IMG/VR virus record: IMGVR_UViG_3300046697_000072
Strand: one strand, 5' to 3'
DNA: 64,000 nucleotides
DNA from: a virus
Positions 3,703-63,762 of this stretch are shown in pieces. The notes under the pieces are model-generated. The model was not told where the DNA came from. It made no database searches and saw only the letters and a program-made list of their open reading frames with translations. Position 1 is the stretch's first letter; the number at the start of each line of letters is the position of its first letter. A program made the position numbers and the translations under genes.

Positions 3703-3939
3703 CTAGGCGGGGATCAGGCTGGGGTGATGTGCAACGTTGGACTCGTACGCTGAAGCGTGCGGCTCGTGAATGGCTACGTTTTCACGGGAGAACTCGCAGC
3801 CGGGGGACTTTTCGTTGTGGTGGCGGCGGATGCCACGGATCAAGTTCTCCATGTCCTTGGCCCCGGTTATACCTGCACAACCGCAGGTCCGGCAGCGCCA
3901 TCCAACGAATTGACGGGGGTACTTACGGCGATAGCTCAT
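3703..3939 (-). CDS. small Cys-rich (zinc-binding?) protein, 78 aa
   Basis: Internal ATG at 3939 follows SD GAGGGAGG. The longer 3703-4179 ORF would overlap the divergent gene at 4042. Confidence 0.55.
   Translation of the reverse strand: MSYRRKYPRQFVGWRCRTCGCAGITGAKDMENLIRGIRRHHNEKSPGCEFSRENVAIHEPHASAYESNVAHHPSLIPA
3729..3742. repeat. palindrome copy GTGCAACGTTGGAC
   Basis: Inside CDS 3703-3939. Confidence 0.95.
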
Positions 3940-3985
3940 AGCCTCGAACGGCACCTCCCTCAAATCAACACTATACACCAATTCC

Positions 3986-3999
3986 GTGCAACGTTGTAT
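3986..3999. repeat. palindrome copy GTGCAACGTTGTAT
   Basis: Intergenic between divergent genes 3939 and 4042, just upstream of a minus-strand TATAGT box (3975-3970). Confidence 0.95.
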
Positions 4000-4041
4000 T
4001 TTGTTCTTGCAACAGCAAGCGCGTGGTGATAGGATGGAGAA

Positions 4042-5316
4042 GTGAAACCGTACTTCGAAGAAGATGACGTTGAGGAGGCCGAAGAGAAAATGACCGACGA
4101 CATGAAAGAACGCGAAACAGACGAACCCCCGGATACCTGCGAGCAACTCGCGAATGCGCTCCGGGAGAAGGATGCCCAAGCCCAGAAGGATCGGGCAGAG
4201 GCGTTCGCGAGCCTGTCACGCGAGATGCTGCTGGCATACGTGGAGCTTTTTCCAAACTTCACATGGCTGGACCCGCAGCAAGCACTGCAAGTGTTCCGCC
4301 GCGCTGTACTCTCTTTGCGTTGGCAGATCAAGCTGATGAACAAGGCCATCGAGATCGGCGCTCAGGATGCGGTCGAGGAGATGTTTCCGATGTCTCCGGC
4401 GAAGCCCTCCGACAGCATGACACTTATCGAGCGGGATTCCGTTGCTGAGTATCGCAAGCGGTTTCTTGCCGAGAAAGCTGAGATCATCGCGCGGCACTTC
4501 ACGCCAGAGCCGATTGTGCCTGTACCAATTCAGCCAAGACGCATCGAAGCACGAACGGACATCATCAATCTACTGGCGCAATACGATGCTGTGATTGAAG
4601 GGCGCGAAAGCGAAGGTGAGTATGAACCCGACGCCGATGATGCGGCTATCGTGGATGACATTCGCCAGCGATGGGGGATGAAGGGCGATCCGGGGGACCC
4701 GCCGATTACTGCTGACGAGAAACTCGACCAATGCGCCCCATACGTCTGTGACCACGACTACTGCGATCTGGAAGAGTGCCGGTGCAAGTGCCATCAGGAT
4801 ACAGCCGTAGCAGCCGTCCGGGAGCTTGCGCCCTTCACGGATCAACCGCTCTCGAAGATCGCCACAATTCGTCGGCAGCACATACTGATCTGCGAACTGC
4901 GTGAACGGGTAAATGAATACCTCACGACCCTTCGTGCCGTATCCGTTGAAGGGCTTGGGTTGACGGACCCGTGGGCGGAAACCGCAACGGACGAGGCTCC
5001 CGATGAATGGACCGGATTACTGAGCGAGAAGGTGGCGGAACTGCGTAGAGAGCGCGACGAAGCGCGCACCGATGCGGCAGCACGGTTGAAGCAGATGCTG
5101 AACCAGTCGGACCTCGACAAACGTGCGATCAAGGAGTGGGAGCAGGCTCTAACCAAAGCGACCGATCTATTGCGCCCATTCGTGCGCATGGAGTTTAACT
5201 CTATGTCGGGCGAGGATACTATTATCAACGGAGCAAAGCAATCCGACTTCGATGCCGCCAAAGTTTTCCTGGATGGCTTTGATTCGCGCCGCAAGGCGAA
5301 GAAAGGGAGAGTATGA
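4042..5316 (+). CDS. acidic hypothetical protein, 424 aa
   Basis: GTG start after GGAGAA. Long ORF on the strand opposite the head operon. Confidence 0.6.
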   Translation: MKPYFEEDDVEEAEEKMTDDMKERETDEPPDTCEQLANALREKDAQAQKDRAEAFASLSREMLLAYVELFPNFTWLDPQQALQVFRRAVLSLRWQIKLMNKAIEIGAQDAVEEMFPMSPAKPSDSMTLIERDSVAEYRKRFLAEKAEIIARHFTPEPIVPVPIQPRRIEARTDIINLLAQYDAVIEGRESEGEYEPDADDAAIVDDIRQRWGMKGDPGDPPITADEKLDQCAPYVCDHDYCDLEECRCKCHQDTAVAAVRELAPFTDQPLSKIATIRRQHILICELRERVNEYLTTLRAVSVEGLGLTDPWAETATDEAPDEWTGLLSEKVAELRRERDEARTDAAARLKQMLNQSDLDKRAIKEWEQALTKATDLLRPFVRMEFNSMSGEDTIINGAKQSDFDAAKVFLDGFDSRRKAKKGRV

Positions 5317-5585
5317 CCGATCAGGTTCCCGGCCCGTCCAGCCTTGTGTACGTGGTGGCCGAAGTCATGGAGAGACGCGAGAAGCAGGATGCCCGTCACG
5401 GCGGTCCCGAGCACGACGACACGCACACGCCATCAGACTGGAGAGTCTTTATTGGTCTGTACAATCGGGTCTCAGCGGAATACGAGAGCGAGCCAGAGAT
5501 CCGAGAAGACAAACTCCTTGACGTTGCGGCGCTCGCGGTGGCTGCCATCCAGAGCAGCCGGAGGAAACGAAATGCGAGCAATTGA
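5313..5585 (+). CDS. hypothetical protein, 90 aa
   Basis: ATGA-type overlap with the upstream gene. Confidence 0.5.
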   Translation: MTDQVPGPSSLVYVVAEVMERREKQDARHGGPEHDDTHTPSDWRVFIGLYNRVSAEYESEPEIREDKLLDVAALAVAAIQSSRRKRNASN

Positions 5586-6226: not shown

Positions 6227-6377
6227 GAAGAATCAAGCCGCTGTCGAGCTAGGCAAGCGCGGTGGCGCGGCCATGGCCAAGCGCGGGCCGGAGTACTTCA
6301 AGCGCATCTCCGCTATGCGGAAGAATAAACGCGGCGGGAGACCGAAGAAGAATGCAGTTCAAGTCGGTCAGGTATAA
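6219..6377 (+). CDS. small basic protein, 52 aa
   Basis: The ATG overlaps the upstream stop. Product MAEKNQAAVELGKRGGAAMAKRG.. Confidence 0.45.
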   Translation: MAEKNQAAVELGKRGGAAMAKRGPEYFKRISAMRKNKRGGRPKKNAVQVGQV

Positions 6378-7455
6378 GAGCGTCGTAGACCGAAATCATC
6401 CTTTGGCGAATTCTCAAGGGTCAGTGAAGGTCCATCGCAAGCTCCTGTACGATAGGATCGGGCCGGGTGAGCACAACTGCCATTGGTGTGGCCGAGTGGT
6501 CCGGTGGAGCAAGCAGGGTACGGCGGGCAACAAAGACCCACACTACTTGGCCGTCGATCACGTTGACGGGGATTCCTTCCACAACGTCGATGACAACTTG
6601 GTCCCGAGTTGCCAGTCCTGCAACACCCGAAGGGCTCACCAACGCATACACGTTAATCCGTCCAGCCTATTGCCAAGCATGAAGCCTGGACGGTCGAGAT
6701 ACAAACAGATCTGCGTCCCTGAAGGGCACCCGCTGGTCAATCCCGGAAGCCCGGCGAAAGTACTTGTACATCGTCTCGTGCTGTACAACCGAATCGGGCC
6801 AGGCCCACATCCGTGCCACTGGTGCGGGAAGCTGGTGGATTGGACGGTCGGTAGGTTCCAGACCAAGGGTGCGTTCGAAGGTGCCCTCATCGTGGATCAC
6901 CTGGACGATTACGGAAAGAACAACGATCCGGAAAACTTGGTCCCTTCCTGCCAAGACTGCAATATCCATCGAACCACAAAGGAACGTTTCGAGAGAATAC
7001 CTCATGTCATCGTTGATGGCCGTCGCTATGCAGCCATCAAAAGGACCTGTAATTCTTGCGGCAAGGATTTTCTGGTGCGCCCATGTAGCGCTCGAAGGCA
7101 TTCCAACAGTGGCAAATACTGCTCAAGAGAGTGCGCCGCTAACGGACGCTATGTAGCCTGCCGAGAGGTCCGGACCTGCGAGACCTGCGGGAATGAATTC
7201 CTGTTTGTTACAAAGATGTCAAAATGGGTCTCGGGGCGGTACTGTTCTAAGAGATGTAATCTGGTTGCAACTCATCTGGCGAGATTGAAGTTGACAGAAG
7301 CGCAGCGCATGGATGTGCGTGAGAAAAGGATTGCGGGTAAAACCATACCAGAGCTAGCTAAAGAATTTAGCGTGTGCCATGGAACTATCGAGAATATCAT
7401 CTACGACAAGTTAACGGTTGTTCCTAGGTTGGGTTCCCTTGCCGTTGCCCCCTAG
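6352..7455 (+). CDS. HNH endonuclease with tandem HNH modules and C-terminal zinc ribbons
   Basis: Two copies of CHWCG..(V/I)DH(V/L)D....N(L)VPSCQxCN, then repeated CxxCG..F...(G)(K/R)YCS..C units. Its 3' end overlaps the portal 3' end. Confidence 0.8.
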   Translation: MQFKSVRYKSVVDRNHPLANSQGSVKVHRKLLYDRIGPGEHNCHWCGRVVRWSKQGTAGNKDPHYLAVDHVDGDSFHNVDDNLVPSCQSCNTRRAHQRIHVNPSSLLPSMKPGRSRYKQICVPEGHPLVNPGSPAKVLVHRLVLYNRIGPGPHPCHWCGKLVDWTVGRFQTKGAFEGALIVDHLDDYGKNNDPENLVPSCQDCNIHRTTKERFERIPHVIVDGRRYAAIKRTCNSCGKDFLVRPCSARRHSNSGKYCSRECAANGRYVACREVRTCETCGNEFLFVTKMSKWVSGRYCSKRCNLVATHLARLKLTEAQRMDVREKRIAGKTIPELAKEFSVCHGTIENIIYDKLTVVPRLGSLAVAP

Positions 7456-9295
7456 TTTGACGTGGGGTACGTCCTGCTGCCGGGCCGACACCGGCCTCGT
7501 GCTCCTCTTTCATTCGCTGCATTTCCACCTTGTAATCGGCGGGGAACTCCGCTTGCTCATAGAGGCCCTGAAGACTTAACGCCCCAAGTTTGTAGAGCGT
7601 CAGGCATTCCACCTTGCGCTGATATCTGGAACTGCTATGGCTGGACCCCGGCGCAATCCGTACCGAAAAGCGAGCCCAGTGGTCCTCCCTCGGTGCCGAA
7701 AACGGCTTCATGATATTCGGGTCGTAGTCACAATCCGCCCACGTCATCCCGTCCGAACCCAGCACGCGAAGCCTTCCGTCCAACGTTGCATACTGGAAGA
7801 TGTTGGAGCAAAGCTGTTTCCCGGATCGGCAGATGGCAGCTTCAAGATACCGGCCTTCGAGTTGGTAGGGCTGCGACATGGCCTCGCGCATCTGCTCGAT
7901 GGCCTCACCACCGGGCTGCTGCTTCTTACGCATCATCCCCTGGGTGTCCAACGCGCCAGAGCGCTTCTTCACGGTCTGCACCCAGTAGTTCAACGCTGCG
8001 TCGGTCCCGCTGGGGATGCTGGGGGAGTCCATCCAGAAGAGGTCGCCCCGCTGCATGATGGGATTACCTAGGATTTTCTGACCCGGTTTTCCGGGGATGA
8101 TCTGATCCCAGACGGCATCCGGGATGGCTCCGCGCTTGCCTACCAGAGTCCGGTTGAAGGCGTTGGTTATGGACTCTTCAACCCCGGCCCCGGCCCGGTT
8201 GATTGCCCCGTTGAGCGGCACGATGTCCCGGTACTTGCTGATCCCGCCCGGCATGAAGACGCACGGGTTCAATTGCAGCATCGTGTAGGGGTATTGCCCG
8301 TGCCAGAACGGGCTGGGGCCATCGTACATTACCCGGTCTCCGCCGAAGATAGTCAGGCGCTTCCGGGGGTACAACCTGCAGCCCGGTGGCACCAAGTAGT
8401 GGTAGTTGTGCTCCTCACGGGTCAGGTCCGGGTGGTGAACCCAGACTTCTTCGTTGCTCTCGTTCACGCTCCAGTCGTCGGAGTAGACCTCCTGGAGTTC
8501 AATGACCGGGTGTGGCGTGCCTTCGGTGCCACCCATCCTGGATGGGCCTTGGCCCCATAGTCCACGGCGCATCAGAGCCTTGCGCTTGAAGAACGGTGAG
8601 AGTGCGTCCCACTTGTACTCCGGGACATCATCCGGTCTGCCAAACTGGTCTTGCCCCAGACCGGCTGTTACGTGAACGGCCTCCCGTTCAAGACCACGGC
8701 ATTTGTCGATGCCGAATTTCTCAATGAAGTAGCCGATGGGCTTGTAGGCCCGGTCGATCACCGCTGCCGATTCCTGAATGTCTCCATTACACAGAACCGG
8801 GATCACTTCCCCCGGACCTTTACAGACAAAGAAGAACGCATCCGGGGCCGCAACTTGCTTCAGGAATCCGGTCCCGAACAGCGCGTGGTCTAGCCATTCC
8901 ACCACCCGCAGATCCAGGTCGTTCTCCGTCCACAGGTAGCGCATATAGTTGTGAACGACTTTGGCTTGCTCTTTGTAGGCCGGGACTTTGGAGTAGACCT
9001 CCAATGCCGGTCGGATCTGCGATAGCGAAGACAGGGCCTCCCGGCGCATGTCCTCCATGTAGTTGTCCACGAACGAGCTGCGGAACTTCGGGCGGCGATC
9101 TGGCCAGAACTTGCCTTGCAAGAGCGAGATGTACTGCTGGATGTTCTGGACTTCCTCCCAGTGGACCATCTCCTCTTTGCCCTGGCGTAGAAGGCTGTCA
9201 CGCCAGTTGGTCATTTTCCTGGAGTATCCGTCTTCAATGTCGATGGCTCCGCTCTTGCCGTGCGCCATCCCCGCCCTTGGAGAACTTGCAAACAT
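7424..9295 (-). CDS. portal (head-tail connector) protein
   Basis: 623 aa. Size, position relative to TerL and podovirus-type portal-like sequence (from memory). The start could instead be 9268. Confidence 0.7.
   Translation of the reverse strand: MFASSPRAGMAHGKSGAIDIEDGYSRKMTNWRDSLLRQGKEEMVHWEEVQNIQQYISLLQGKFWPDRRPKFRSSFVDNYMEDMRREALSSLSQIRPALEVYSKVPAYKEQAKVVHNYMRYLWTENDLDLRVVEWLDHALFGTGFLKQVAAPDAFFFVCKGPGEVIPVLCNGDIQESAAVIDRAYKPIGYFIEKFGIDKCRGLEREAVHVTAGLGQDQFGRPDDVPEYKWDALSPFFKRKALMRRGLWGQGPSRMGGTEGTPHPVIELQEVYSDDWSVNESNEEVWVHHPDLTREEHNYHYLVPPGCRLYPRKRLTIFGGDRVMYDGPSPFWHGQYPYTMLQLNPCVFMPGGISKYRDIVPLNGAINRAGAGVEESITNAFNRTLVGKRGAIPDAVWDQIIPGKPGQKILGNPIMQRGDLFWMDSPSIPSGTDAALNYWVQTVKKRSGALDTQGMMRKKQQPGGEAIEQMREAMSQPYQLEGRYLEAAICRSGKQLCSNIFQYATLDGRLRVLGSDGMTWADCDYDPNIMKPFSAPREDHWARFSVRIAPGSSHSSSRYQRKVECLTLYKLGALSLQGLYEQAEFPADYKVEMQRMKEEHEAGVGPAAGRTPRQTRGQRQGNPT
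7778..7791. repeat. palindrome copy GTCCAACGTTGCAT
   Basis: Inside the portal CDS. Confidence 0.95.
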
Positions 9296-10492: not shown

Positions 10493-11104
10493 CTACTCTC
10501 TATGAGTGGCGTCGGACACCTCCTGTGCAACGTTGGATGGCTGCAACTCCGCGAACAACTCCGCGCCTCCACCCAGAGCCTTACGGATCAGGGCCAGCAG
10601 TTCTCCACCGGAATTGAACTGTCCGTCCAGCAACTCTTCCAGATCCCGTTTCTCCGGGGGTGCCATCAGTATTCGCACGGGCCGGTGGCCGGGGTCGATC
10701 TCATAGACCCACTCCCGTTCCAGGATCGTATCCACGGTCTCCTGGACAAGTGCTTCCGGGGTTTGGCCGGAGACCCGTGCAATCTCTTCGTAAGCTGGCC
10801 AGTAGGACGGGTCGATCAGGATCGTGACTTTGTGCTTGCCTTCGGTGATCCCGGTGCCTTCGGAGATCAGCGCTACGATCTCTTCCTCGGTTTCCGGGTC
10901 CACGCCGCAGGCTTCCCGGATTCGGGTGATCCCGTGCGGGCTGATCAGCATTCCTCCGTCTGCGATCTGGGTGAGAAAGACTTCTGCGACTCGCGCCACT
11001 CGGCGGGCATCGGTCATAGTCGGGGCGTCTATCCGCTCGATGATGTCCTGCGCCTGAGTTGGTGTGAGTCGAACGTCAATCGTATAGATAACTGTGTCGG
11101 CCAT
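10493..11104 (-). CDS. hypothetical protein, 203 aa
   Basis: Clean ORF with protein-like composition. Confidence 0.6.
   Translation of the reverse strand: MADTVIYTIDVRLTPTQAQDIIERIDAPTMTDARRVARVAEVFLTQIADGGMLISPHGITRIREACGVDPETEEEIVALISEGTGITEGKHKVTILIDPSYWPAYEEIARVSGQTPEALVQETVDTILEREWVYEIDPGHRPVRILMAPPEKRDLEELLDGQFNSGGELLALIRKALGGGAELFAELQPSNVAQEVSDATHRE
10525..10538. repeat. palindrome copy GTGCAACGTTGGAT
   Basis: 3' end of CDS 10493-11104. Confidence 0.95.
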
Positions 11105-11156: not shown

Positions 11157-11492
11157 TTAAATCATTGCTATCTTCCAGATGGCCAGCCACAGAACCTTGC
11201 ATAGAACGTGCAGGGCCTGATCGACATTAAGCCCGTACCTGCCGTCGCATTTCCCATAGTCGATCAAAGCGTGGGTGCAGAACTCTGCCACGCCAAGCAC
11301 TACGCTCCCGGTCACCAGTGAGACCGCACCCGCCTGAATCAGAGCATGAGCCGCGAGACATTGATACCAGGGGATCGTCGGGATGGGGTTTTTGTGGTTC
11401 TTGCCCCGCGCAAGGAAATCTCCCTGGAGTGGGTAGTCGCAAACTGCGTGGCCCACCAGCAGCCACCAGAATGAAGTCAGTATCAGCGTCAT
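11157..11492 (-). CDS. DUF3307-like integral membrane protein
   Basis: MTLILTSFWWLLVGHAVCDYPLQGDF.. The ATG overlaps the terL stop (ATGA). Confidence 0.55.
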   Translation of the reverse strand: MTLILTSFWWLLVGHAVCDYPLQGDFLARGKNHKNPIPTIPWYQCLAAHALIQAGAVSLVTGSVVLGVAEFCTHALIDYGKCDGRYGLNVDQALHVLCKVLWLAIWKIAMI

Positions 11493-14400
11493 AGTACCCC
11501 CAGTTCTACCTCGGGCGGCTTCTCGTTGTCCCGCTGCGCGCTCATCCATTCGAACGCTTCGTCCAGATTCGTCTTCCGGGGATCGGCGGTAGTCACCGGC
11601 TCCCCGGTAATCCGAATCGACTGGCAGGCTTCGTTCGGGCATCGGTACTCTTTCTCCGGGTTCGCTGCCCCCCACACGGTCTTACACTTTAGGCACGTCA
11701 TCCTGTACCGGGCCGGGGCCGACTCTTCGATCCCCACGGGAACCTGGATGCGCCCAGTTTCATCGCAGTCCAATTCGTGTGCCGTGTATAAACTGATCAT
11801 GCCTGCCATGAGTTCGTCATCATTGCAGTTTGACGCAGCCCCGAAAGACCGGCTGGCGTATTCTTCCTTCCGGTACGTGGTCGTTTCCTCAAAGAAGTTC
11901 TTCGACCGGATGATCCAGCAATGGGAGAGCAGCCAGTCCACGGCGGTCTGGTGCAGGTAAGCCTTTGTGTTCGGCTTCGTCCACCAGTGCCACGTCTGAG
12001 ACATTGGGTTGATCTTGTCCTTGTGCTTCCAGCGGTAGACGTTCGGGTAGTGGTAGACGTACAGCAAGTCATCCCCAGTGGTCTGGTAGGTGTTGTACTC
12101 GACGGCCATTTCCCCGTAGTTGTACCACTTGCCGATCACGTTCGCGTAGAACGCCAAATCCTTGGGGTAAGTGTGGTTGTCCCGGAAGACGGCTACCTGT
12201 TCATCGGGCCGGTGCGGGCCACCGATCTTGTTGACGAAGATCACGGAATAGTCTTCCCCGATCCCTTCGCTGACATCGACAGCAATGGAGTACGTCGCGC
12301 CTTTGATCGGCTCCTCCCATACCCAGAACGGAGTGTCGTCATGCCGGTGGTCAACGTTGCACGTCGGCACGAAGCACCGGCCTTTCCGCAGAGGATCGGC
12401 TCCGTGGATCTCCCCGTTGTCCCGATAGATTTTGCCTTTCTTCAGCGGGAACTCTTCGATGGTCTCCGTCATCCAGTCCCGGCAGGCATCACTGAATAGA
12501 ACGTAGCCGCTCACTTGCCAGGATTCCTCGGACGTAACGCAATTGTGGACAGTGAATCCGTTTGCTGAAAACAGATGTGAAGGGGTGATCTCCATGTCGA
12601 ACACGGAGCAATCCTCCCCCGCTTGGACCTTCAGAACCCTGTCGGCCATTGGATGCTGATAGGACCACTGGTTAATCTGGAAAGTTGGCCTTATGCAAGC
12701 GCTACGCTTACGGTCACTGATGAATCCGACGCGCTCGTGGAATCGGTTGGACTGCGTGACCCCTAAGCCCAAGCACCTCCCTGTAAACGTTCTTCCCTCG
12801 GAATTAGTTTTGTCCTCTTTGTGGATCGTTCCGTTAATCCCGAAAGCCAACAGCAGTAGCTGGACATCCCTGATGAACGGTTCGAACTTCGAGAAAAACC
12901 GAGTGCGCGGAACATTCTTGTCAGCGTTACCGTCACATTCGAACAGGGCCGACAAGAACTCCTTGACAACTGAAGCCGGTGATCTCCAAATACAGTCTGG
13001 GACGCGCACCTTCCGATGCCAGCCGTACTTGTTGTTCGGCCACAATTCGATAGCACCGATCTGCTTTAAGATGGGTCTCCACCGAATGTCGTGGGACCTC
13101 AGGCTGTTCATGCCTCCAATGCGAGATCGGCAACAAGCGTGCCCGGTAAATTTGATAACAAGCCGGTCGATATCATCGGCTACGTCTGGGTCTTTGGCGT
13201 CACAGGCGAAACCGATCCCACCTTCAGTAAGACCGCCATCCCCCATGAAGTACCCCAGGAACCGTCCGAGGTCTTCATCGACATGAATGGAATGGTGCTC
13301 TATCGGAGGGTCAGACCATTCGATTTCGCAATAGCGGCCTGATAAGCGCGGGGGGCAAAGCCGAACAGAATCTCCGTAGTGTAGGTCTCCCGCCGCTTTC
13401 CAGTCTCCGGATTCCAGGAGGATCAAGTGGTCTGCCGTGCATTGGAGAATTCTACCGCTCAATGTTTCAACGATGACCGTGTGCTGAAATCCTTTGTCGA
13501 ACCATCCGGAGACTTCTCCCGACTCGGAGGATTGCCCGACGTTCTCCCTCGCCCCTATGGGAAGAATCCCAAGCTCTGTAGAGACCCGCATATTCCCGGC
13601 GATGCAATGTTCCTGACGAAGTAACTTTACAGCATTGACACCCTGTTCTTCGGCCTGTTCACGCCGGTCCTGGTGCCAGTAAAGCTGCTCATCAGTGAGC
13701 ACCAGCCGCATCAACGTTCCAGCCTTGCACTCCGGGCAAACAGTCCCGATCATGGATTCTTCCATGACGATGGCCTTCTGGTAGCGCCCGCAGATAGAGT
13801 TATTGCACCGAGCCCATTCTTTTTTAACGCGCTCACGGAGCGTGAACTCTTTGTGGGGCATAGTCCAGCCGTTTGGAGGAGCCAACACGCGGGTAGTCTC
13901 GAAGAACGTCGGAAGGAATAGCGGATACCATTTCGGCCATTTCCCGGCATCCAGACGGCGTTCACAGGCCCTCCAGAGTAAGTGGGATGCCGTTCCGGCC
14001 CCGCGCCCAGTGGACTCCATGAATCCGAAAACTTCCGGGTCATCGGCCATGGAGTTTGCCAAGTCTTCGTTTACGATGGCCTCCAGGTCTTCTTCCAAGA
14101 AATCCGAGAATTCAGAACAGTGAACCGCGTCGATAGGGATGCCCTGTCCTACACCGGAGTACTGATTGGACCACTGCACGAAAACTTTAGAGTTCAGTCC
14201 GGGGTGGCGAGAGCGCTGGTTATCGTCCGGGTTCTCGAACCACAGTCCGTACTGCTCCTCACGCCGAGCTATCATGGGCTTCAACCACCACGGCAGCTTG
14301 TCGTAAATGTGGAGCATGAGCCCGAACAAGTAGGACGAGTGTTTCTGATCCACAGAGATCACGATGGCGTTCGTGTTGGGGAAAAACATCGACCGCCACG

Positions 14401-51540: not shown

Positions 51541-51612
51541 CATACGAATTTCGCAGTAACGGACGGCCCGAGATCGAGCACTTCGACACCAAGGTCAGGA
51601 GTTTGACGATTG

Positions 51613-52123: not shown

Positions 52124-52131
52124 ACTCCCCG

Positions 52132-55815: not shown

Positions 55816-58367
55816 TGCACCTTCACTCCCTTGCAGAGGATGCACTGCTTTATAGGCGACGCGCCGGCCCCTTCCGTGATCTGGTAGACGTGCGCTCCGT
55901 ATGCGCCGAATGAATCCGTGAACGTGGAACCACTTGGCGTGATCGTGCGGCTCTCGTTGTAGACTGTCACGGTCGAAATCGGAGCGTGCCAGGTGAATGT
56001 CGGGGCCACTGTCCCGCTGGTGGTGTTGCTGGCGATCAAGGTCGGAGTCGCCCCGGACTTTACGCGCGTGTGGACGGTGGCCGTATCGTTGCTAGTCAGT
56101 TTGGTATTGTCATCCAACGCGGCGAGAGGAGTGGCTAAACCATCGATCTCTCCTATGACGTTCTTCAAATTGGTCCAGTTTGCAATCCATGTTGCATTTT
56201 GTAGACTTCGAACGGTTCCATCGAACGATCCAGAGAAGGCCGATGAGTTCACGGGTATAGTGAATGTATTGGCATCTATGACCGTAGGCCGGTAGCTCTG
56301 ATCGTTCATGGCAGACCAGCTACCAGTCGCGCCGTAAGTATAGACGTAGCTAAAATCAGCAGTCAATCCGTGCCCAGGGATAGTAAACGTCGTTACCGCT
56401 CCCTTGGTCACAGTGTCTAGTGCTGCATTCGTATCATCGACAGGCGTCCCCGTCCCAAACACTAAGTGCCCGTTGAATGTACCAGCGAAACCGGTAGAGT
56501 TTACTGGAACGGTGATATTGGATGAACTAGACGTAGCGGTAATCGTCTGCGCTCCATTCAGCGCAGTCCAATCTCCCGTAGCCCCGGTGATTGTGGCGCT
56601 GCACGTCCCCCCGCACTGCGGATGCCAAGGCGAAATAATAGTCGTTGGAGACCCAGGAGTCACAGACGTAATACCGCCTAGTTCCGTAAAGATAGAACTC
56701 AACTGCCCCGCAGACCAGTACATCAATCCATTGGCTCCGTCTGCTACTGCCATGTAGCTCATATCTCGCAGTTCGGCCTGTGTGGGCCATCTAATAGTTC
56801 CAGTAAACTGGAAGTACTGAATAACAGTCATTACTGGGCGTGATGATTGAACCGCTGACATTGCAGCAGTTGTCCATGTGCTCACTTCGTTGAGTGGGTA
56901 GCCAGATCCTTCGGCTCCAAACAGGGGGTACGGATCGGTAGCCAAAATATCCACGGTATCTCTCCACAGGGGTAGAGAGGAGTCCCCCAACTGAGCTCCG
57001 AGTATGGCCGCTCCTGGTGCCAACCTATCAGTGCGGGCCTTCGTCGCAAACGTGGTGGCTGCCACCGATGCGGCGCATTCGTCTGTACGATAGATTCCCC
57101 AAAACCCAGGCATTGCCGCCCGCGCTTCTATCTCCGCGTCTGACCCGATGTACCAAAAAAAGCTCGAACCTGGGATGCTGGTGGTTACGCAGTTATCTGT
57201 TTCTATCCACCCCACACCACTACCGTAAGTCTGGAGAGCTGCAATGAATGGGGAGGCTGCCAAGTTTGCCAAGTCTCCCATCCAGTAATTCAAATAGAGA
57301 TTCACTCCCGTGAGCCCAGACAACTCTATCGTGCTATTCAATTGGTTCAGGAAAAAGGATTCTGAGGTGCTGTACCCGCCCCCTGAGTCATACAACCCCA
57401 ACATGAACGTCGGCACACCGTTTTTCAAAATTCTCTGATTCTGGTCTGCGCTTGTCTGGAATCCGGTGCGCGTGCTCCCTGGGTATTTGTAGATCGAGTA
57501 GTATGGATACTGATTGTTGGAACTTGCGTTTCCTCCACTGGAAGTCTGAGTCAACTGAAACGACACACGGTACTCAGTGGACTCCGAGAGTGCGGCCATG
57601 TCAAAGGTTGCCGTGGTGCTGGCTAACGCGGGCCACGATCCCGCCAGAACTGTGGTTCCATCCGCTGTCTTGATTGTGCCATCAACCGTGTAGTCAGAAA
57701 GCGTCAAGTCTGTTGGATACATCCCCTGTGATGGATTTGGGACCACACTGAAAGTTGTGATCTGTGATTGATCGTCAAACAGCATCCCCTTCCAATTCGG
57801 GTACTGCATGAAGACAGAGATCGGCCTCTGCTCTTGGGTAAGTACTACATCATCGAACCAAGCCGTTCCGCTGGTGCCATTGTAGGCTGCCTCAAGACTC
57901 ACTTGGATCTGAGCCGCGCTGCCCAAGGATAACCCCGGAAGAAGTATCTCGGTCCAATCATTTGTCCCCGTTAACGCTGGCGAGGAAGTCCAGATCAATG
58001 CGTAAGGAAATGACGGAGGAGCAAATACGCTCACTCGCACTCCATTTCCCGTTATTGAGCTAGTCTTTACCCACACGCTCAAGTCATACACTCCTGCTGG
58101 CTGTGTGGAGATAGTCTGCTGAAGATTCACAACAGACCCGGAGAGGACCATCTTGGCGCTGTATGTACCAGTGTGTGCGTAATCACTAGCCACAGTAATG
58201 GCCCCCCCTCCGCCAGTCCAACCCGTGAAGTCCCCAGACTCTAATCCAGGATTGGATAGAAGGTTGGAGCTAGGAACTGCTGCGGGATAGGAAGACAGTC
58301 CGCCGGGAGTCTGTGCCAAAGCAGTGCTAGCAAGCGCCAGAAAACACAGTAATTGTTTCATAGTCAT
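55812..58367 (-). CDS. large protein with a signal-peptide-like N-terminus and a carbohydrate-binding-module-like domain
   Basis: MKQLLCFLALASTALAQ, then NPGLESGDFTGWTG (CBM4/9-style motif). Confidence 0.6.
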   Translation of the reverse strand: MTMKQLLCFLALASTALAQTPGGLSSYPAAVPSSNLLSNPGLESGDFTGWTGGGGAITVASDYAHTGTYSAKMVLSGSVVNLQQTISTQPAGVYDLSVWVKTSSITGNGVRVSVFAPPSFPYALIWTSSPALTGTNDWTEILLPGLSLGSAAQIQVSLEAAYNGTSGTAWFDDVVLTQEQRPISVFMQYPNWKGMLFDDQSQITTFSVVPNPSQGMYPTDLTLSDYTVDGTIKTADGTTVLAGSWPALASTTATFDMAALSESTEYRVSFQLTQTSSGGNASSNNQYPYYSIYKYPGSTRTGFQTSADQNQRILKNGVPTFMLGLYDSGGGYSTSESFFLNQLNSTIELSGLTGVNLYLNYWMGDLANLAASPFIAALQTYGSGVGWIETDNCVTTSIPGSSFFWYIGSDAEIEARAAMPGFWGIYRTDECAASVAATTFATKARTDRLAPGAAILGAQLGDSSLPLWRDTVDILATDPYPLFGAEGSGYPLNEVSTWTTAAMSAVQSSRPVMTVIQYFQFTGTIRWPTQAELRDMSYMAVADGANGLMYWSAGQLSSIFTELGGITSVTPGSPTTIISPWHPQCGGTCSATITGATGDWTALNGAQTITATSSSSNITVPVNSTGFAGTFNGHLVFGTGTPVDDTNAALDTVTKGAVTTFTIPGHGLTADFSYVYTYGATGSWSAMNDQSYRPTVIDANTFTIPVNSSAFSGSFDGTVRSLQNATWIANWTNLKNVIGEIDGLATPLAALDDNTKLTSNDTATVHTRVKSGATPTLIASNTTSGTVAPTFTWHAPISTVTVYNESRTITPSGSTFTDSFGAYGAHVYQITEGAGASPIKQCILCKGVKVQ

Positions 58368-58377
58368 TGTCTCATGG

Positions 58378-59124
58378 TCAGGGGTGTATGGTTATGATAA
58401 TCCCGCCACCAGTTACACTGCGATCTCCGGTCGCCGTTGCGGTATAAGCTGCCTTAGCTGATACCGCTGCGGTCTCCAACAGCACGTTTCCGGGATTAGT
58501 GGGGCTCCGTTGCTGAAAACTAATGGGCGAAGATTCTGGAGTAAAGTTTATGCACCACGGGTAATCTGGCTGGACCGCAGACAAAACCGCCACTAATGCT
58601 TCATTTGTGTAGCTGGTGGTTGCTGTGGTTCCAGTCGTGTACGTGGAAGTTGCCACAAAGGTGCTGGTGGCATACAAATCAACCGGCGATGCGGACGCCC
58701 CGCTATACTCTATGACGTTTGTTATGTAGTTTGAGTTTGTGCCGCTACAGAAAATAGACACCGTAGTAGCCCCAGTAGTTGCTACGCTTGCCCACCACGC
58801 GGCGGTCTCAGTGACGCCGGAAGTGTCCAGGTAGTCAACAATCAAATGCCAAGTCACAGCATTCGGCGTATTTGAAACCGTAAAACTAGAGCAGGTCGAG
58901 CTTGTGACGGCTCCGAAGACAAATAGTTTATAGCCGGCAGTGGGCGAGTAGCTAACGCTATCGCTGTAAGCCGACACGGAATGTGATGCGCTTCCCACGT
59001 AGGCTGGAGCTGCTGAATCGGCCGCCGTCTGATACATCCCCGGCCCCGGAAACGGGAACATCTGAAACATCGGCCCCAGGAGGGCGCGAAGCATTAGAGT
59101 TGCGATTGCGATTGTGCTGGTCAT
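58378..59124 (-). CDS. hypothetical protein with a hydrophobic N-terminus, 248 aa
   Basis: ATGA coupling at 59124. Confidence 0.5.
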   Translation of the reverse strand: MTSTIAIATLMLRALLGPMFQMFPFPGPGMYQTAADSAAPAYVGSASHSVSAYSDSVSYSPTAGYKLFVFGAVTSSTCSSFTVSNTPNAVTWHLIVDYLDTSGVTETAAWWASVATTGATTVSIFCSGTNSNYITNVIEYSGASASPVDLYATSTFVATSTYTTGTTATTSYTNEALVAVLSAVQPDYPWCINFTPESSPISFQQRSPTNPGNVLLETAAVSAKAAYTATATGDRSVTGGGIIITIHP

Positions 59125-60932
59125 CGGGTTACACTCCAATTTAAGGTTACTGCTCCTGGAACGATGGCCGTTCCTGTTTTGTTTGCCAGGCGGAAATGCA
59201 CGTAACCAGCGGTGGGCCACCAATACACAGCCAAGCCGTCTGTGGTCAGTGCTCCGTAGCCGGTGACCCCGCTAATGTCAGCATTTGGAGTGATGTAAAT
59301 TGTGTCGGTTGAAACTACTCCGGTTGCAACCACATTCGTGGCCGTGTCTTGTGCGTTCAGCGCAATTGAGGTTGTGCGAAGCGCCTGCGCTCCAGCAGCG
59401 ATCCTGATAGGGCTGTTCGGCATGATCCAATCTGTTCCGTTGTAGTAGAGCAGCACGGGCACGCTAGTTTGAAGTTCGCTTCCCAACAGAGCCGCTCCGT
59501 TGTGAAAGATCGGAACCGCGCCCCCTGAGTTGATCGCCAGCGTCATGGTTGAGGCGTTCACCGCGCCAGGAACGAACCAGATAAAATCCCCGGTGGCGAG
59601 CGTGAACGTGGGAGCTAGAGTACAGGTCTGGGCCGACGTGCTGGAAGACCCCGTGCAGGTCATCGGCACCGTGATGTTATGCGCTGTAGCTGCCACAGGA
59701 GCGCCATAGGCCCCAGTCCCAACAAGATTAGCCGAAGCGGGCACCGCAACCGCAGTAGGGGCAGCCGCGCCGCTGGTGTTGTTCAGCAGTTCGGTGGCGC
59801 TGGCCTGTGTTGCTAAATTCGTGAGCGGCACTGTCGGCGTGCAGGATGTACCGCTCGTGCAGGTTGTTCCGTAAACGCTCACGGTCGGATTCGACTTGTG
59901 AACCACGCCCGCGGGGGTGATGTAATCCACCCACTGGTTACTCGTGGCACTGGATTCGGGTGCCACCATCGTGCCGGTTAGAACGCTTGAGGCATTTAGG
60001 TACTGCGGCATGTGGGCCGTTGAATCCAGATAGACTGTCGGAACCGTAACCGTAGGAGCGGCCTCTTCCAGTCCCTGCAATAGCAGAGCCGTGCTCGATC
60101 CAGTGCTGAACCCTCCATCGGCCTCAATGATTCCGCTGACGTTGATGTTCCCTGTCTGCTGTGTGCCAGGAGCAGAGGATTGCAGGTTCACGCCAGCGAC
60201 AGACCCTGTTGGCACTACGAACGCCGAACCGTTCCACGAACACATGGAATAGGTGGGTATCGTGCCGCCACCCGTTGGAGGACATGCCCCGGCTACGGTG
60301 GCATCCGTAAACAACATCGTGTCACCGGCAGACGGAGATCCGGGCTTGCTCCCGAAAACGCCACGATAAGTGAAGCCTGTGCCGTTCGTGCCCGCTGCAC
60401 CGTTCGTTCCGTTCGTGCCATTGGTCCCGTTGCTGCCTGCCGCTCCAGTTGTGCCCATCGCGCCCGTCGTTCCGGTAGCGCCCTGTATGCCTTGGATTCC
60501 CTGAATACCTTGCGAACCTGTTGCGCCAGCCGCACCCTGTGGCCCAACCAACGACGTGCAGGTCCCTGGCCACGCCCCCGCCGCCTTGGGGCCGTACATG
60601 CAAGTGGTGTCGGTCTTCAGGTAGAAGTCCCCGTTGTTTCCCCCGGATGGCGCACCGGTCCCATTGAGGATCGAGTTTCCGTTGGTTCCGTTCGTTCCAT
60701 TCCCGGCGATGACTTCCCAGGAATAACTTCCTGACCCAACTTGGGAGCACCCGTAGAGGCTGGCATTCGCCGCTTGGGTGTTTTTCCGGTAGTAGACCTT
60801 CCCTACGTCACTGATGGTTCCACAGCCGCCCGATGGGGCCCCCGTGCCACTTGTGATCCTCTGTGCCGTCGAAGTGAACTGCGCCAACACCGGGGTGGAC
60901 AGGAACAGGATTGTTGCCAGTAAGCGTTTCAT
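59121..60932 (-). CDS. collagen-like-repeat fibre protein with a signal-peptide-like N-terminus
   Basis: MKRLLATILFLSTPVLAQ. About 19 G-X-Y triplets. SD GAGGTG. Confidence 0.65.
   Translation of the reverse strand: MKRLLATILFLSTPVLAQFTSTAQRITSGTGAPSGGCGTISDVGKVYYRKNTQAANASLYGCSQVGSGSYSWEVIAGNGTNGTNGNSILNGTGAPSGGNNGDFYLKTDTTCMYGPKAAGAWPGTCTSLVGPQGAAGATGSQGIQGIQGIQGATGTTGAMGTTGAAGSNGTNGTNGTNGAAGTNGTGFTYRGVFGSKPGSPSAGDTMLFTDATVAGACPPTGGGTIPTYSMCSWNGSAFVVPTGSVAGVNLQSSAPGTQQTGNINVSGIIEADGGFSTGSSTALLLQGLEEAAPTVTVPTVYLDSTAHMPQYLNASSVLTGTMVAPESSATSNQWVDYITPAGVVHKSNPTVSVYGTTCTSGTSCTPTVPLTNLATQASATELLNNTSGAAAPTAVAVPASANLVGTGAYGAPVAATAHNITVPMTCTGSSSTSAQTCTLAPTFTLATGDFIWFVPGAVNASTMTLAINSGGAVPIFHNGAALLGSELQTSVPVLLYYNGTDWIMPNSPIRIAAGAQALRTTSIALNAQDTATNVVATGVVSTDTIYITPNADISGVTGYGALTTDGLAVYWWPTAGYVHFRLANKTGTAIVPGAVTLNWSVTR
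60375..60545 (-). repeat. collagen-like Gly-X-Y tract coding region
   Basis: GPQGAAGATGSQGIQGIQGIQGATGTTGAMGTTGAAGSNGTNGTNGTNGAAGTNG. Confidence 0.85.
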
Positions 60933-60939
60933 GGTCACC

Positions 60940-61263
60940 TCACAGGAGCCCGTACAAGTACTGAACGCCGTCCCCGGAATTGTCCAAATCAACGTAGACG
61001 GTCCTCAGGTCGTAATCATGAACCGGCCATGCGACACTCGCATCTCCGGGGTGGATCGGGCATCCGGAGCCGGAAGGGATCGCCCCGGAATCAGCAGCAT
61101 TGGGGACCCCGCCGATCCGGACTTCTCCGACGTTCGCTACCCCGCCTACAACACGGGGAAAGAACGTGATCCATGTTGCCGGGACGGGATTCAGACCCGA
61201 GGCTAAAGGAACGGCGGTTCCAGGGGTGGTGGAAGTTTTGAAGCCGTGATACAGTGCGGCCAT
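60940..61263 (-). CDS. hypothetical protein, 107 aa (first gene of the leftward operon)
   Basis: SD GGTGAGG. Confidence 0.5.
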   Translation of the reverse strand: MAALYHGFKTSTTPGTAVPLASGLNPVPATWITFFPRVVGGVANVGEVRIGGVPNAADSGAIPSGSGCPIHPGDASVAWPVHDYDLRTVYVDLDNSGDGVQYLYGLL

Positions 61264-61330
61264 AGGTATACCTCACCCCGATGCTACACCTTATTTAGCT
61301 TGATTTCAAGTGCTTGAGCGGGTAATTCTG

Positions 61331-61486
61331 TCAGGCTGCGGCTGCGGAGTCCAACGTTGCACAAGCCAACGCCGACTCGGTGTCTTCCCGCTTCTGCTCA
61401 GGATCGAACGGGACGGACAGGGCTTCGGCCAGGAGAGTGATCTCGTCCTCGTCGTAGTCGAGTTTTCGTAGCCAGTGCCGATCCAT
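61331..61486 (-). CDS. small acidic protein, 51 aa
   Basis: G/C-rich third positions. Product MDRHWLRKLDYDEDEITLLAEALSVPFDPEQ.. Contains a palindrome copy. Confidence 0.45.
   Translation of the reverse strand: MDRHWLRKLDYDEDEITLLAEALSVPFDPEQKREDTESALACATLDSAAAA
61349..61362. repeat. palindrome copy GTCCAACGTTGCAC
   Basis: Inside small ORF 61331-61486. Confidence 0.95.
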
Positions 61487-61782: not shown

Positions 61783-61811
61783 ATTCTACGGCAACCCCGG
61801 TTTTATGTCAA
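61783..61811 (-). promoter_or_regulatory. promoter AAAAAACTCTTGACA-17-TAGAAT (leftward)
   Basis: Minus strand: -35 at 61811-61806 and -10 at 61788-61783. Confidence 0.55.
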
Positions 61812-61823
61812 GAGTTTTTTCGC

Positions 61824-61853
61824 TTGACAGCGGAAACCGGGCGGGTGTAGTAT
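61824..61853 (+). promoter_or_regulatory. promoter TTGACA-18-TAGTAT (rightward), back-to-back with the leftward one
   Basis: -35 at 61824-61829 and -10 at 61848-61853. Confidence 0.5.
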
Positions 61854-61978
61854 CGAAGTGTCTGCCGGTCGCGCAAACCGGCAGACACTCTGGGTCCGGG
61901 ACGGGTCAAGAGTTTCAGTGGGTCCAGCGGGGCGGCTCCATACGCCCCGCCCCCACAACCACATGGAGGTGGTTGACG

Positions 61979-62542
61979 ATGCATTCTGACGCTTTGAAAT
62001 CCTTCAGGGTTGACCTTTCTGAAGATCGACTCGAATCCCTCTTTGAAGAATTTCTCGTAATGTTCCTGGGGGAATGTAACGAGGAGCCCTCCTTCATTCT
62101 GTTCACTGATAAACACCGGCAGAAACTGATCGATCTTGTTGGTGAGGCATACACGACTTCCCGGCACTACAACCAAATAGCGGAGTGGTCAATTGCTTGG
62201 GAAAACGGTAAGGCCGATGCCGACCAGATACTCTCTGTTTATGTTTTCGACCACTGTAGAACCCTTGAACAGGCAGAGGAACACCTTCGGGAAATGAAGT
62301 CTCTCCCGTATGTGGAATTCCTTAAGACGGATTACTGGTCAATCGTGCGGCGGGCCGTCATACGGATGCACAACGGGAAATGCGGGGTTTGTCTGTCTTC
62401 CGACCATCTCCACGTTCATCATAAATCCTACGATCACCACGGGGAGGAGCATGAACATCTTGAGGATTTGATCCCATTATGCCGTTCGTGTCACGAAAAG
62501 TTTCACAATAAAGTCCCAACTCCCGGAGTATCTGCTCAATGA
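61979..62542 (+). CDS. HNH-motif protein
   Basis: CGVC..LHVHHKSY..EEHEHLEDLIPLCRSCHEKFH. SD GGAGGTGG. Confidence 0.65.
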   Translation: MHSDALKSFRVDLSEDRLESLFEEFLVMFLGECNEEPSFILFTDKHRQKLIDLVGEAYTTSRHYNQIAEWSIAWENGKADADQILSVYVFDHCRTLEQAEEHLREMKSLPYVEFLKTDYWSIVRRAVIRMHNGKCGVCLSSDHLHVHHKSYDHHGEEHEHLEDLIPLCRSCHEKFHNKVPTPGVSAQ

Positions 62543-63762
62543 AAACCGATGACCCGGTGTTCAAGCTCCTCACGGAGTTTTGCGGGCAGAGTGCCCAGGT
62601 CACCATACCAAGGGCGCTCATCTCCCTTACGGGTGACTTGAAAACCGCGATGGTTCTTTCTCAGGTCGTCTATTGGTCTGGCAAGAAAGACCAGTCTGAC
62701 GGTTGGTTCTATAAAACTTACGACCAATGGAATGAGGAATTAGCGCTTTCCAAGCATGAGGTTTCTAGGGCTGTTGATTGGCTTTCTAGTGAGGGATTAG
62801 TTGAGTTCGAAACCCGCAAGGAAGGTGGTGTCCCGAAGCTCCATTACCACTTTTCGATCTCCGGTTTCCGGAAGTGGATAGTTAAAAAAGGGGAAGTCGA
62901 TAGTGAAAAAATCGGAGATCTGAACAGCGAAAAACCGGAAGTCCCTAATAAGGAACAGAAGAATACTCCAGAAGAGTACAAACAGAAGAATACAGAAGAA
63001 CCTCCGCCGGAGGAAAACGGAACTATAACCGGAATTGAAAACCAAGAACCTTTTGACCGGGAGGCCCTTCCAAAACTTTTGTGTTCGCGGTTCAAGAGGC
63101 TGAGGGGGGTTCGGTCGTTTCCGAAAAGTTGCAGGGATCTCGTCCAACGTTGCACGGGCATTCTTAATTCGAACTGGTCCGAAGACCAAGTTCTATCTGT
63201 GTTCGAGGATTGGGAATCTGAGGAGTTCTGGAGATCCTTTACCATTGAGCATAAAGTGCATTCATTCTTCAAGTATACCGAGTCTCACTCCCCTCGCCAG
63301 AAGACCGAACTACTGGAGCCCCCCGGAGCATCCCCCCAGCCTGAGATCCCGGTGCTGGTTACGGCAACTCCAGTGGCCCCTGCGATTGATTTCCCGGCCC
63401 GGTGGAACGAGCTTGTACCAGCGCGGCCTACGGTTTGGAACCAAGCTCGGGATTCATGGCGCGGGGTGGGGGTGTTTTCAGACCCAGAATTTGCAGCCAA
63501 ATTTGACGACTTGTGCCGCACATGCCAGAAGTTCATCACAGCCAAGCCGGATGCAGATTGGGTTCACTTCCGCTGGATGATCGGAGCCAAGGACGGACAC
63601 CCGAACTGGCACCGGGTAGACAGTGACGAGTTCCATATCAGCGAGAAGCGCCACGGGTCCGGCATGACCGCTGAAGAGAAAGGCCAGATGACCCGTAATC
63701 TAGCCAAACAGATGGAGGAAGAGAATGAAACTCGAAAGAAAGCAGCCGCTCAGAAGTCTTGA
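62539..63762 (+). CDS. possible replication initiator or winged-helix DNA-binding protein
   Basis: N-terminal ..IPRALISLTGDLKTAMVLSQVVYWSGK.. resembles replisome-organizer N-termini. This call is weak. Confidence 0.35.
   Translation: MKTDDPVFKLLTEFCGQSAQVTIPRALISLTGDLKTAMVLSQVVYWSGKKDQSDGWFYKTYDQWNEELALSKHEVSRAVDWLSSEGLVEFETRKEGGVPKLHYHFSISGFRKWIVKKGEVDSEKIGDLNSEKPEVPNKEQKNTPEEYKQKNTEEPPPEENGTITGIENQEPFDREALPKLLCSRFKRLRGVRSFPKSCRDLVQRCTGILNSNWSEDQVLSVFEDWESEEFWRSFTIEHKVHSFFKYTESHSPRQKTELLEPPGASPQPEIPVLVTATPVAPAIDFPARWNELVPARPTVWNQARDSWRGVGVFSDPEFAAKFDDLCRTCQKFITAKPDADWVHFRWMIGAKDGHPNWHRVDSDEFHISEKRHGSGMTAEEKGQMTRNLAKQMEEENETRKKAAAQKS
63142..63155. repeat. palindrome copy GTCCAACGTTGCAC
   Basis: Inside CDS 62539-63762. 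Confidence 0.95.

Follow-up and report, generated by a model that had tools for sequence, protein, structure and literature searches.

A short, dyad-symmetric DNA element recurs throughout the genome of a metagenomic phage that also encodes a candidate protein to read it. We describe this element in IMG/VR virus record IMGVR_UViG_3300046697_000072, of which we analysed a stretch of 64,000 nt (the window). The element is 14 bp long, with the consensus (T)GT[G/C]CAACGTTG[G/C]AC(A), and we think, with slightly more belief than doubt, that its copies are dispersed parS- or OB-like sites at which the phage's orphan ParB/Noc/KorB-like protein (gene 19071-19943) binds. To judge from sequence, the element appears to be a cis-acting double-stranded-DNA site of the phage lineage, and the ParB-like product is its most likely reader. 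An earlier note on this DNA had compared the palindromes with KorB operators and dispersed parS sites and had placed them in control regions; the comparison is now the best supported explanation, whereas the wording about control regions goes too far. The evidence consists of the ParB/Noc/KorB fold of the protein, with its helix-turn-helix (HTH), a site on the promoter of the gene itself, and palindrome arrays that occur in homologue-bearing lineages and not in controls.

The window is part of a ~104-kb phage, 82 kb of which are covered in the analysis. Exact-protein look-ups map it, at 99.9% identity, to the 103,751-bp Joint Genome Institute (JGI) metagenome contig Ga0495367_000140, and adjacent pieces of that contig add 18 kb of flanking DNA to the 64-kb window. 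The 22 copies of CAACGTTG listed in the earlier note are all recovered at the same coordinates on recount; dinucleotide-preserving shuffles (n=100) average 1.29 and never exceed 4. When up to two mismatches are allowed, the 14-mer GTNCAACGTTGNAC has 25 matches in the window against 1.9 expected, a set that includes the previously noticed one-mismatch copy GTGCAACTTTGGAC at 39914-39927. The density in the window is about one copy per 2.8 kb. Counting in more of the phage DNA, as had been proposed, shows that enrichment continues: the flanks hold 7 further copies, for 29 in 82 kb at a median spacing of 2.4 kb. Among all 8-mers of the window, CAACGTTG is the sole strongly over-represented palindrome; other enriched 8-mers trace to a pentapeptide-repeat gene or belong to the ribosome-binding context CACAGGAG, which has 17 occurrences. 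A literature search for CAACGTTG returned only primers and CpG oligonucleotides.

On the left of the 22 copies, position -3 is G in 21 and position -2 is T in 21, whereas -1 is G or C in 19 and -4 is a pyrimidine in 20; on the right, G or C stands at +8 in 17, A at +9 in 21, and C at +10 in 16, with T in the other 6. The flanking dinucleotides are therefore as first described (GT on the left in 20/22, AC on the right in 16/22). The description of the element as a 14-bp palindrome needs refinement: the dyad stands, and perfect symmetry fails for most copies. The form GTGCAACGTTGGAC or its reverse complement accounts for 14 of 22 copies, in which the half-sites differ at position 3. Heterotypic half-sites (GTG-CAAC with GTC-CAAC) make up 17 of the 21 informative sites, flanking copies included (binomial P=0.007). 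Within genes, the copies fall in each of the three reading frames (9/8/1), as had been suggested from a few examples, and the signal is therefore at the DNA level. Spacing has no significant regularity (coefficient of variation 0.76, P=0.08), and the copy-free stretches 19978-27006 and 50425-61348, to which attention had been drawn, are not statistically unusual (largest gap, P=0.39).

The copies favour gene junctions. Gene starts were taken from a codon-usage gene finder, in part from our own calls, and checked against metagenome gene calls. On this basis, a start codon is no more than 40 nt away for 10 of the 22 copies, where 1000 trials of random placement give a mean of 3.1 and a maximum of 9; 5 further copies lie within 65 nt of a stop codon, and 7 lie deep within genes. 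A Shine-Dalgarno sequence follows 7 or 8 copies directly. The asymmetric variants are found in both orientations inside co-directional gene blocks. Relatives have a similar junction bias, and in them the element is usually centred 16-25 nt upstream of the following start.

Several junction copies illustrate this arrangement. The copy at 41591-41604 is followed at once by AAGGAGG and a start at 41619, that at 42494-42507 by GAGGAGG and a start at 42531, and that at 44021-44034 directly by a Shine-Dalgarno sequence in the gap between the DnaN and RecT-like genes. The copy at 46289-46302 overlaps the GTG start 46287; that at 49112-49125 overlaps the ATG start 49110, one gene upstream of a helicase gene; and that at 27007-27020 lies at the junction of genes 27021-27194 and 26566-27024. 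Five copies had been placed on or near starts. Of the starts concerned, 19979 and 37407 are an effect of taking the longest open reading frame (ORF); by metagenome calls and Shine-Dalgarno positions the genes begin at 19943 and 37464, and these two copies therefore lie upstream of genes. One of them, at 37417-37430, is 34 nt upstream of the called start 37464 of a radical-SAM-like gene, which has a second copy within it (37759-37772). The three copies described as intergenic are so: besides the DnaN/RecT-like gap, they occupy the two divergent intergenic regions, with GTGCAACGTTGTAT at 3986-3999 in region 3955-4041 and a copy at 29745-29758 in the 260-bp region 29548-29807. The latter copy is kept in the relative L174. 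In the same 260-bp region the 20-bp sequence GGTTGTTGCCAGCCGAATCC occurs twice as a direct repeat, with ~40 bp between the copies, and a hairpin (CCACGGG...CCCGTGG) abuts the motif copy; the repeats and the hairpin are also kept in L174.

Other copies lie near gene ends or inside genes. The copy at 10525-10538 is 38 nt from a gene's stop codon and has AGGAGG directly after it, and the copy at 33094-33107 has a stop codon 30 nt further on. A GTGCAACGTTGGAC copy (3729-3742) is near the 3' end of a small minus-strand ORF, a symmetric GTG..CAC copy (31222-31235) near a gene 3' end, and another (61349-61362) near the 3' end of a small minus-strand gene. Copies also stand within the portal gene (7778-7791; gene 7424-9268, minus), within an intein-bearing ORF at 11489-14776 (12349-12362, with a GGT flank), within gene 16838-17767 (17410-17423), within an AAA ATPase gene (34886-34899) and within gene 62539-63762 (63142-63155). 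The fully symmetric copy GTCCAACGTTGGAC (50411-50424) is within the helicase gene.

The element is mostly away from promoters. The window has ~10 near-consensus sigma-70-type promoters consisting of an A-tract, TCTTGACA, N17 and TAnnAT, among them those at 20016, 20161, 28702, 31012 and 61811 on the minus strand and at 34191, 40864, 42890 and 61824 on the plus strand; those at 61811 and 61824 are back to back and divergent. Of the 22 copies, only 1 has a -35/-10 pair no more than 25 nt upstream of it (0.3 by random placement), and ~10 strong TTGACA-N17-TAnnAT promoters have no motif. A promoter or operator role for all sites is thus rejected, as 1 of 22 fits, and to speak of intergenic control regions, as the earlier note did, was to overstate the case.

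The single promoter-linked copy is at the ParB-like gene. It occupies 19964-19977 and begins 10 nt past the -10 box of a TTGACA-17 bp-TACAAT promoter (19988-20016, minus, with an upstream A-tract), and therefore covers roughly +2 to +16. This promoter drives the ParB-like gene first and then the structural operon. The same order of promoter, element and ParB-like gene is found in L012 and L017, which have different motif variants, and in L174 and L175; it is kept across three lineages. In the last two, which are ~83% identical to the window phage, conservation of the site is uninformative because entire intergenic regions are conserved (89-96%). Upstream of the ParB-like gene there is also a segment of ~130 nt between tandem promoters (20020-20160, minus) that is almost invariant in relatives, in contrast to coding DNA that is only ~83% identical in the same relatives. 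It contains the inverted repeat GGGTGGGCA...TGCCCACCC and may be a small RNA or a structured leader.

The candidate motif binder is a 290-amino-acid protein of the ParB/Noc/KorB fold (19071-19943, minus), with DGF(N/H)RxxA in its N-domain and an HTH at about residues 145-165. Residues 16-185 match the PHROG family 'ParB-like partition protein' (1e-12), and the profile also matches sulfiredoxin and ParB chains. D79, G80, R83 and A86 are invariant, so that the GxxRxxA nucleotide-binding motif is present; box III is divergent, with NGHHG instead of ENLQR. Nucleotide specificity varies among ParB folds (PMC12704722). In the AlphaFold2 model, residues 17-167 have pLDDT values mostly of 80-90, and residues 168-290 fall below 50, yet their sequence is conserved within the family. 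Helices are modelled at 124-164, a weak match to an HTH-repressor PHROG covers 133-168, and the conserved segment TDKQISGMIGCSPTLVGQVRRG is at the modelled HTH helices. A Foldseek search of the PDB places ParB (7bnk, 6sdk, 7bm8), Noc (7ol9, 7nfu) and KorB (8qa9) at the top, the last with a root-mean-square deviation of 4.2 A over 154 columns. These matches (~150 columns) span the nucleotide-binding and DNA-binding domains, the PDB entries being C-terminally truncated. Over the 82 kb, the only candidates for sequence-specific DNA binding among Pfam matches are a faint ParB_N and, outside the window, sigma-70 region 2. At E <=1e-10 the profile of the ParB-like product collects 8137 clusters at 50% identity, and the family is therefore large. 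A recent survey of ParB folds describes many orphan phage ParB-like proteins of unknown role (PMC12704722); in a term search of that paper, palindromes and site arrays were not mentioned.

An association between protein and palindromes is seen beyond the phage's own family. IMG/VR was searched with an alignment of ParB-like orthologues, and 10 kb on each side of a match were taken. This gave 67 loci outside the window's family, picked by ParB-like homology alone and comprising 36 lineages at 60% identity that are not fully independent. In these loci, 35 of 118 AACGTT occurrences lie in perfect 12-bp palindromes, where chance predicts 1.8. By the same count, 1.32 Mb of portal-family loci with no ParB-like gene in view give 0 of 157, and cellular loci (0.88 Mb) give 2 of 275; in these controls (2.2 Mb), no locus repeats such a 12-bp palindrome. 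The arrays are TGGTAACGTTACCA in the L331/L349 group; CCCATAACGTTATGGG in L341/L342, whose 12 copies, spread over 16.7 kb, are without exception intergenic and at gene junctions; GGTAACGTTTCC in L323, at 67% GC, with 8 AACGTT against 1.1 expected; CTTATAACGTTATAAG in L354, at 33% GC; and GAAACGGCCGTTTC in L324/L340, with 11 copies in 20 kb. The association is real, and it is not universal. The only GenBank phage with a detectable ParB-like homologue has a single AACGTT, and it is inside a perfect 16-bp palindrome. The proteins common to the array lineages and the window phage are the ParB-like protein and a RadD/ResIII-type SF2 helicase (49356-51125, plus), whose gene adjoins the ParB-like gene in those unrelated array-bearing lineages. 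Two ParB-like-bearing contigs also have repeated intergenic hairpins, CCTGCCGGACGCAGG then ACAGGAGA and CGGCGGGAACGCCG (L363 536-5679, L352 3833-9656); these look like RNA-level elements rather than AAC..GTT palindromes.

Within the family, the element changes in a patterned manner. Portal homologues define a large family of ~100-kb phages among JGI metagenome and IMG/VR contigs, many of whose sample identifiers we take to be peat, bog and soil projects. We compared loci around portal genes, 10 kb on either side, in relatives with portal identities of 37-64% and 52-62% GC. These relatives keep the (T)GTCC...GGAC(A) arms and differ in core or length (14, 15 or 16 bp). The variants are CCAACGTTGG (L010), GTCCAACGTTGGAC (L015), GTCCAATGTTGGAC (L012, L095), GTC[C/T]CACGTTGGAC (L017), the 15-bp GTCCCAGGGTTGGAC (L011), the 16-bp GTCCAACATGTTGGAC (L107), GTCCAnnnnTGGAC (L128), TGTCCGGATTCGGACA (L062) and TGTCCGAGTTCGGA (L130); GTCYCACGTTGGAC is likewise among the forms of the portal relatives, and GTCCAACGTTGGAC, GTCCAATGTTGGAC, GTCYCACGTTGGAC, GTCCCAGGGTTGGAC, GTCCAACATGTTGGAC, GTCCAnnnnTGGAC and TGTCCGGATTCGGACA each have 3-7 copies per ~20 kb. 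The frame GTCC-N6-GGAC occurs 3-7 times in many relatives' loci against 0.33 expected per 21.8 kb, and the variant CAATGTTG is a CpG-to-TpG change. Persisting arms with a drifting core and length fit a phage-lineage cis element that would co-evolve with its reader, rather than host composition. Covariation of the recognition helix with the motif variants gave no clear pattern, and the ParB-like gene is at the edge of the 10-kb flanks around the portal, which limits the comparison of gene and motif in this family. In a relative, a 51-bp unit that contains the dyad ACTCCGCACAGGGAGT is also repeated eight times in tandem (L062 3753-4160, L307 14279-14640), and is probably a 17-amino-acid protein repeat.

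A mechanism can be sketched by analogy with ParB-parS, Noc-NBS and KorB-OB, in which we infer binding by the ParB-like product, a nucleotide switch and the effect of binding. A dimer of the ParB-like protein would recognise the palindrome through its HTH. Its N-domain, of the ParB nucleotide-binding type, could next shut the dimer as a clamp, free to leave the site and slide. Because sites recur every ~2.4-2.8 kb, for the most part at gene junctions, loading would extend over the whole phage chromosome. The site at +2 to +16 would provide autoregulation of the ParB-like gene or timing of late genes, with control of the structural operon. Candidate outcomes of binding are silencing, anti-silencing, compaction or partition.

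Several observations weigh against this assignment. The preference for heterotypic half-sites is unexpected for a symmetric homodimer, and the C-terminal region of the ParB-like product, which may be the dimerisation region, is poorly modelled. No ParA/CbiA-type family is among the Pfam matches recorded for 82 of the 104 kb. About 80% of the phage genes have no recognisable family, and another DNA-binding protein could therefore be the reader. Obvious arrays are found in only ~5 of the 36 ParB-like lineages, within 10 kb on either side of the gene; the ParB-like-bearing relatives L019, L108 and L127 have no enriched dyad, and L010 has no site at its ParB-like promoter. Finally, some phage ParB-like proteins are cofactors of DNA-modifying enzymes (bioRxiv 10.1101/2025.08.14.668559).

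The first of the rival explanations is that a different dimeric DNA-binding protein, either a phage regulator or a host factor, binds the sites, perhaps as stoperator-like roadblocks or boundaries, and that the ParB-like gene is merely regulated. We consider this unlikely, though worth keeping in view. Junction bias and dyad form would suit any such protein, heterotypic half-sites could suit a heterodimer, most phage genes are unannotated, and several ParB-like-bearing relatives lack arrays; however, ParB-like homology alone was sufficient to find unrelated array phages, these have only the ParB-like protein and the helicase in common with the window phage, and the site architecture, together with the promoter site at the ParB-like gene, is typical of the ParB/KorB family. 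It is improbable that the motif serves as a target for DNA modification, restriction or nicking, or arises as their by-product (methylation or hypermodification at AACGTT or ACGT, or cutting by an HNH nickase), with the ParB-like protein as a cofactor. The 14-16 bp specificity and variable length are unlike typical modification sites, restriction targets are usually depleted rather than enriched, and neither a DNA methyltransferase nor a TET/JBP family is recorded in the 82 kb. Phage ParB-like proteins can activate TET/JBP-type (thymine) dioxygenases (bioRxiv 10.1101/2025.08.14.668559), but the dioxygenase-linked ParBs have no DNA-binding domain, and the window's protein has an HTH. The CpG-to-TpG variant CAATGTTG would suit modification, as would the several HNH and endonuclease VII genes that vary between near-identical genomes; a link to these insertion polymorphisms was considered and rejected, as the motif copies are not beside the variable genes.

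The two remaining explanations appeal to RNA and to the host. An RNA hairpin or cruciform by ribosome-binding sites, acting in processing, translational control or termination, is very improbable. The 7 or 8 copies directly before a Shine-Dalgarno sequence and the location of junction sites 15-25 nt upstream of starts are what such a role would lead one to expect. Set against them are a G-G or C-C mismatch at stem position 3/12 in the dominant form, lineage variants that are non-compensatory (GTCCCAC/GTTGGAC, CAATGTTG), and windows of 30 nt that fold like shuffles (z ~0), save for the fully symmetric copy at 50411; there is also no U-tract after the sites, and asymmetric variants are found in both orientations with respect to transcription. 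A hairpin or intrinsic terminator was rejected on folding, mismatch and the non-compensatory variants. Least probable of all is a host-lineage iterated palindrome like cyanobacterial HIP1, passed to the phage by shared mutation and repair pressure. The pentapeptide-repeat gene and the cyanophage RecT matches gave a first impression of a cyanophage, and alternate highly iterated palindromes (HIPs) exist (PMC4390886), but none of the published ones (Elhai; PMC4390886) matches the motif, GCGATCGC is absent from the window, and the nearest isolates infect Acidobacteriota; the cyanophage idea was dropped on the peat and soil setting of the family, the Tunturiibacter phages as nearest isolates and the unmatched alternate HIPs. 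Moreover, related phages have kept the arms of the motif and diverged in its length and core, and copies favour gene junctions. When 185,579 species' genomes were scanned for the most frequent exact 14-mer, at least 120 single matches, scattered across phyla, were obtained, and the 880 kb around the matches listed contain 16 further CAACGTTG, which is about the chance level; this sample represents cells at large rather than the phage's host. The scan speaks against a widespread cellular signature, and the host-lineage alternative that had been raised at the outset is not supported by the drift among relatives, the junction bias or any enriched stretch in the cellular sample.

If dispersed sites for the ParB-like protein are the right reading, known systems offer several comparisons. 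ParB-family sites are palindromes of 13-16 bp, and Noc binds ~70 dispersed sites. The Noc-NBS and ParB-parS systems share with the window phage palindromes of 14-16 bp and a protein with ParB_N and an HTH. They differ in that the sites here lie one to two orders of magnitude more densely, and in that the protein is an orphan, no ParA being seen, with NGHHG in place of ENLQR in box III. The 16-bp palindrome parS, TGTTNCACGTGAAACA (PMC7022226), has 10-12 of 16 positions in common with the extended motif TGTCCAACGTTGGACA.

In form, the closest published analogue comes from Cluster O mycobacteriophages, whose genomes each have over 30 dispersed copies of a 17-bp dyad repeat, TGTTCGGNNNCCGAACA; Corndog has 34 of them: 14 intergenic, 10 near the 5' ends of genes and 10 internal (Cresawn et al. 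2015, PMC4351075). Those repeats are mostly off promoters, have an orientation independent of transcription, are absent from host genomes and are of unknown function; no binding protein was assigned to them (PMC4351075). Our own count in Corndog 48-69.8 kb gives 22 copies. The two systems are alike in their tens of dispersed dyads, their intergenic and 5'-end bias, their position mostly off promoters and their indifference to the direction of transcription; genes for a ParB-like protein, a beta clamp, an AAA ATPase and glycosyl- and methyl-transferases are also present in Cluster O phages (PMC4351075). They are unlike in that the Cluster O repeat consists of 7-bp arms with a 3-bp spacer, and the element here is a contiguous 14-mer with an invariant CAACGTTG core. 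The phages themselves are unrelated, with no detectable portal or ParB-like similarity between Corndog and the window phage. Corndog gp90 was considered as a member of the ParB-like subfamily and rejected: it is a canonical-type ParB (GQRRTLAA) that the subfamily profile misses. The stoperators of Cluster A mycobacteriophages, bound by L5 gp71, are similar in being dozens of junction sites mostly off promoters (PMC4351075). Stoperators are asymmetric, oriented with transcription and bound by the immunity repressor of a temperate phage, whereas the sites here are dyad-symmetric and occur in both orientations.

The IncP plasmid RK2 carries 12 OB sites of 13 bp in ~60 kb. In terms of mechanism, its KorB-OB system is the nearest characterised one (McLean et al. 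2025, PMC11790492). Both systems combine a ParB-family protein with multiple dispersed palindromes on a mobile genome, some at promoters and many far away; the Foldseek match to KorB and the possible autoregulation of the ParB-like gene extend the likeness. The finding departs from KorB-OB in how many sites there are and how densely they lie (at least 29 in 82 kb), in host replicon, which is a phage and not a plasmid, and in partner proteins, no KorA-like or IncC/ParA partner being identified in the window phage.

A broader proposal is more tentative, and we hold it to be doubtful: that widespread phage orphan ParB-like proteins act as nucleotide switches that load at dozens of lineage-specific AAC..GTT junction palindromes and coat or regulate the viral chromosome, which would also explain the Cluster O 17-bp repeats. 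Were such a class to exist, it would constitute a virus-encoded system for silencing, anti-silencing or organising an entire genome. If the window's ParB-like protein does read a genome-wide array of parS-like sites, clamp biology of the ParB/KorB type would extend from plasmids and chromosomes to whole-genome viral control. That reading would also supply a concrete candidate mechanism for the unexplained dispersed dyad repeats of Cluster O mycobacteriophages, and a search rule for metagenomes, namely AAC..GTT-centred palindromes with lineage-specific arms.

The remaining features describe the phage itself. No close match to the window was found among GenBank phages (megablast), and a single-sequence portal scan of IMG/VR returned none; alignment-based scans did find the relatives. 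The nearest isolates are Tunturiibacter (Acidobacteriota) phages, with a portal identity of 25%, and the best RecT matches are cyanophages. Recognisable genes of the window include one for a P22-like portal and, upstream of it, a large ORF that contains a LAGLIDADG intein; genes for collagen-like and CBM-bearing tail fibres; those for DnaN, a RecT fusion, an SF2 helicase and HNH endonucleases; and the pentapeptide-repeat gene. Neither an integrase nor a repressor was recognised among the genes of the 82 kb. The intein-bearing ORF (11489-14776, minus; 1095 amino acids) is presumably the large terminase, to judge by the orthologues of relatives, which have 739-816 amino acids. A LAGLIDADG insertion is also found in the portal homologue P0030.

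Variation within the population affects several loci. The pentapeptide-repeat gene (GANLS-type; window 38916-39866, L001 6062-6913) encodes 313-316 versus 283 amino acids, and its repeat number varies among population variants that are 99.9% identical. HNH and endonuclease VII genes (window 6352-7455, 983-1648 and 61979-62542; L005/L006, L008/L009) vary in presence and length between near-identical genomes, a pattern that suggests ongoing turnover of homing endonucleases in the population. There is one CGATCG and no GCGATCGC in window 1-64000, where we estimate ~20 CGATCG at 57% GC; the relatives L011 and L012 carry 16-18 CGATCG in 16-22 kb, and the scarcity looks like lineage-specific avoidance of a PvuI-type restriction site. 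Genes of the Acb2/Tad1-hairpin family (anti-CBASS sponge) are found in the same phage outside the window (L005 14444-14851) and in a relative (L011 618-836). Just beyond the window, a sigma-70 region-2-like gene has two forms, L008 17422-18165 (247 amino acids) and L009 17422-19041 (539 amino acids), and the longer ORF carries a motif copy in its 5' part.

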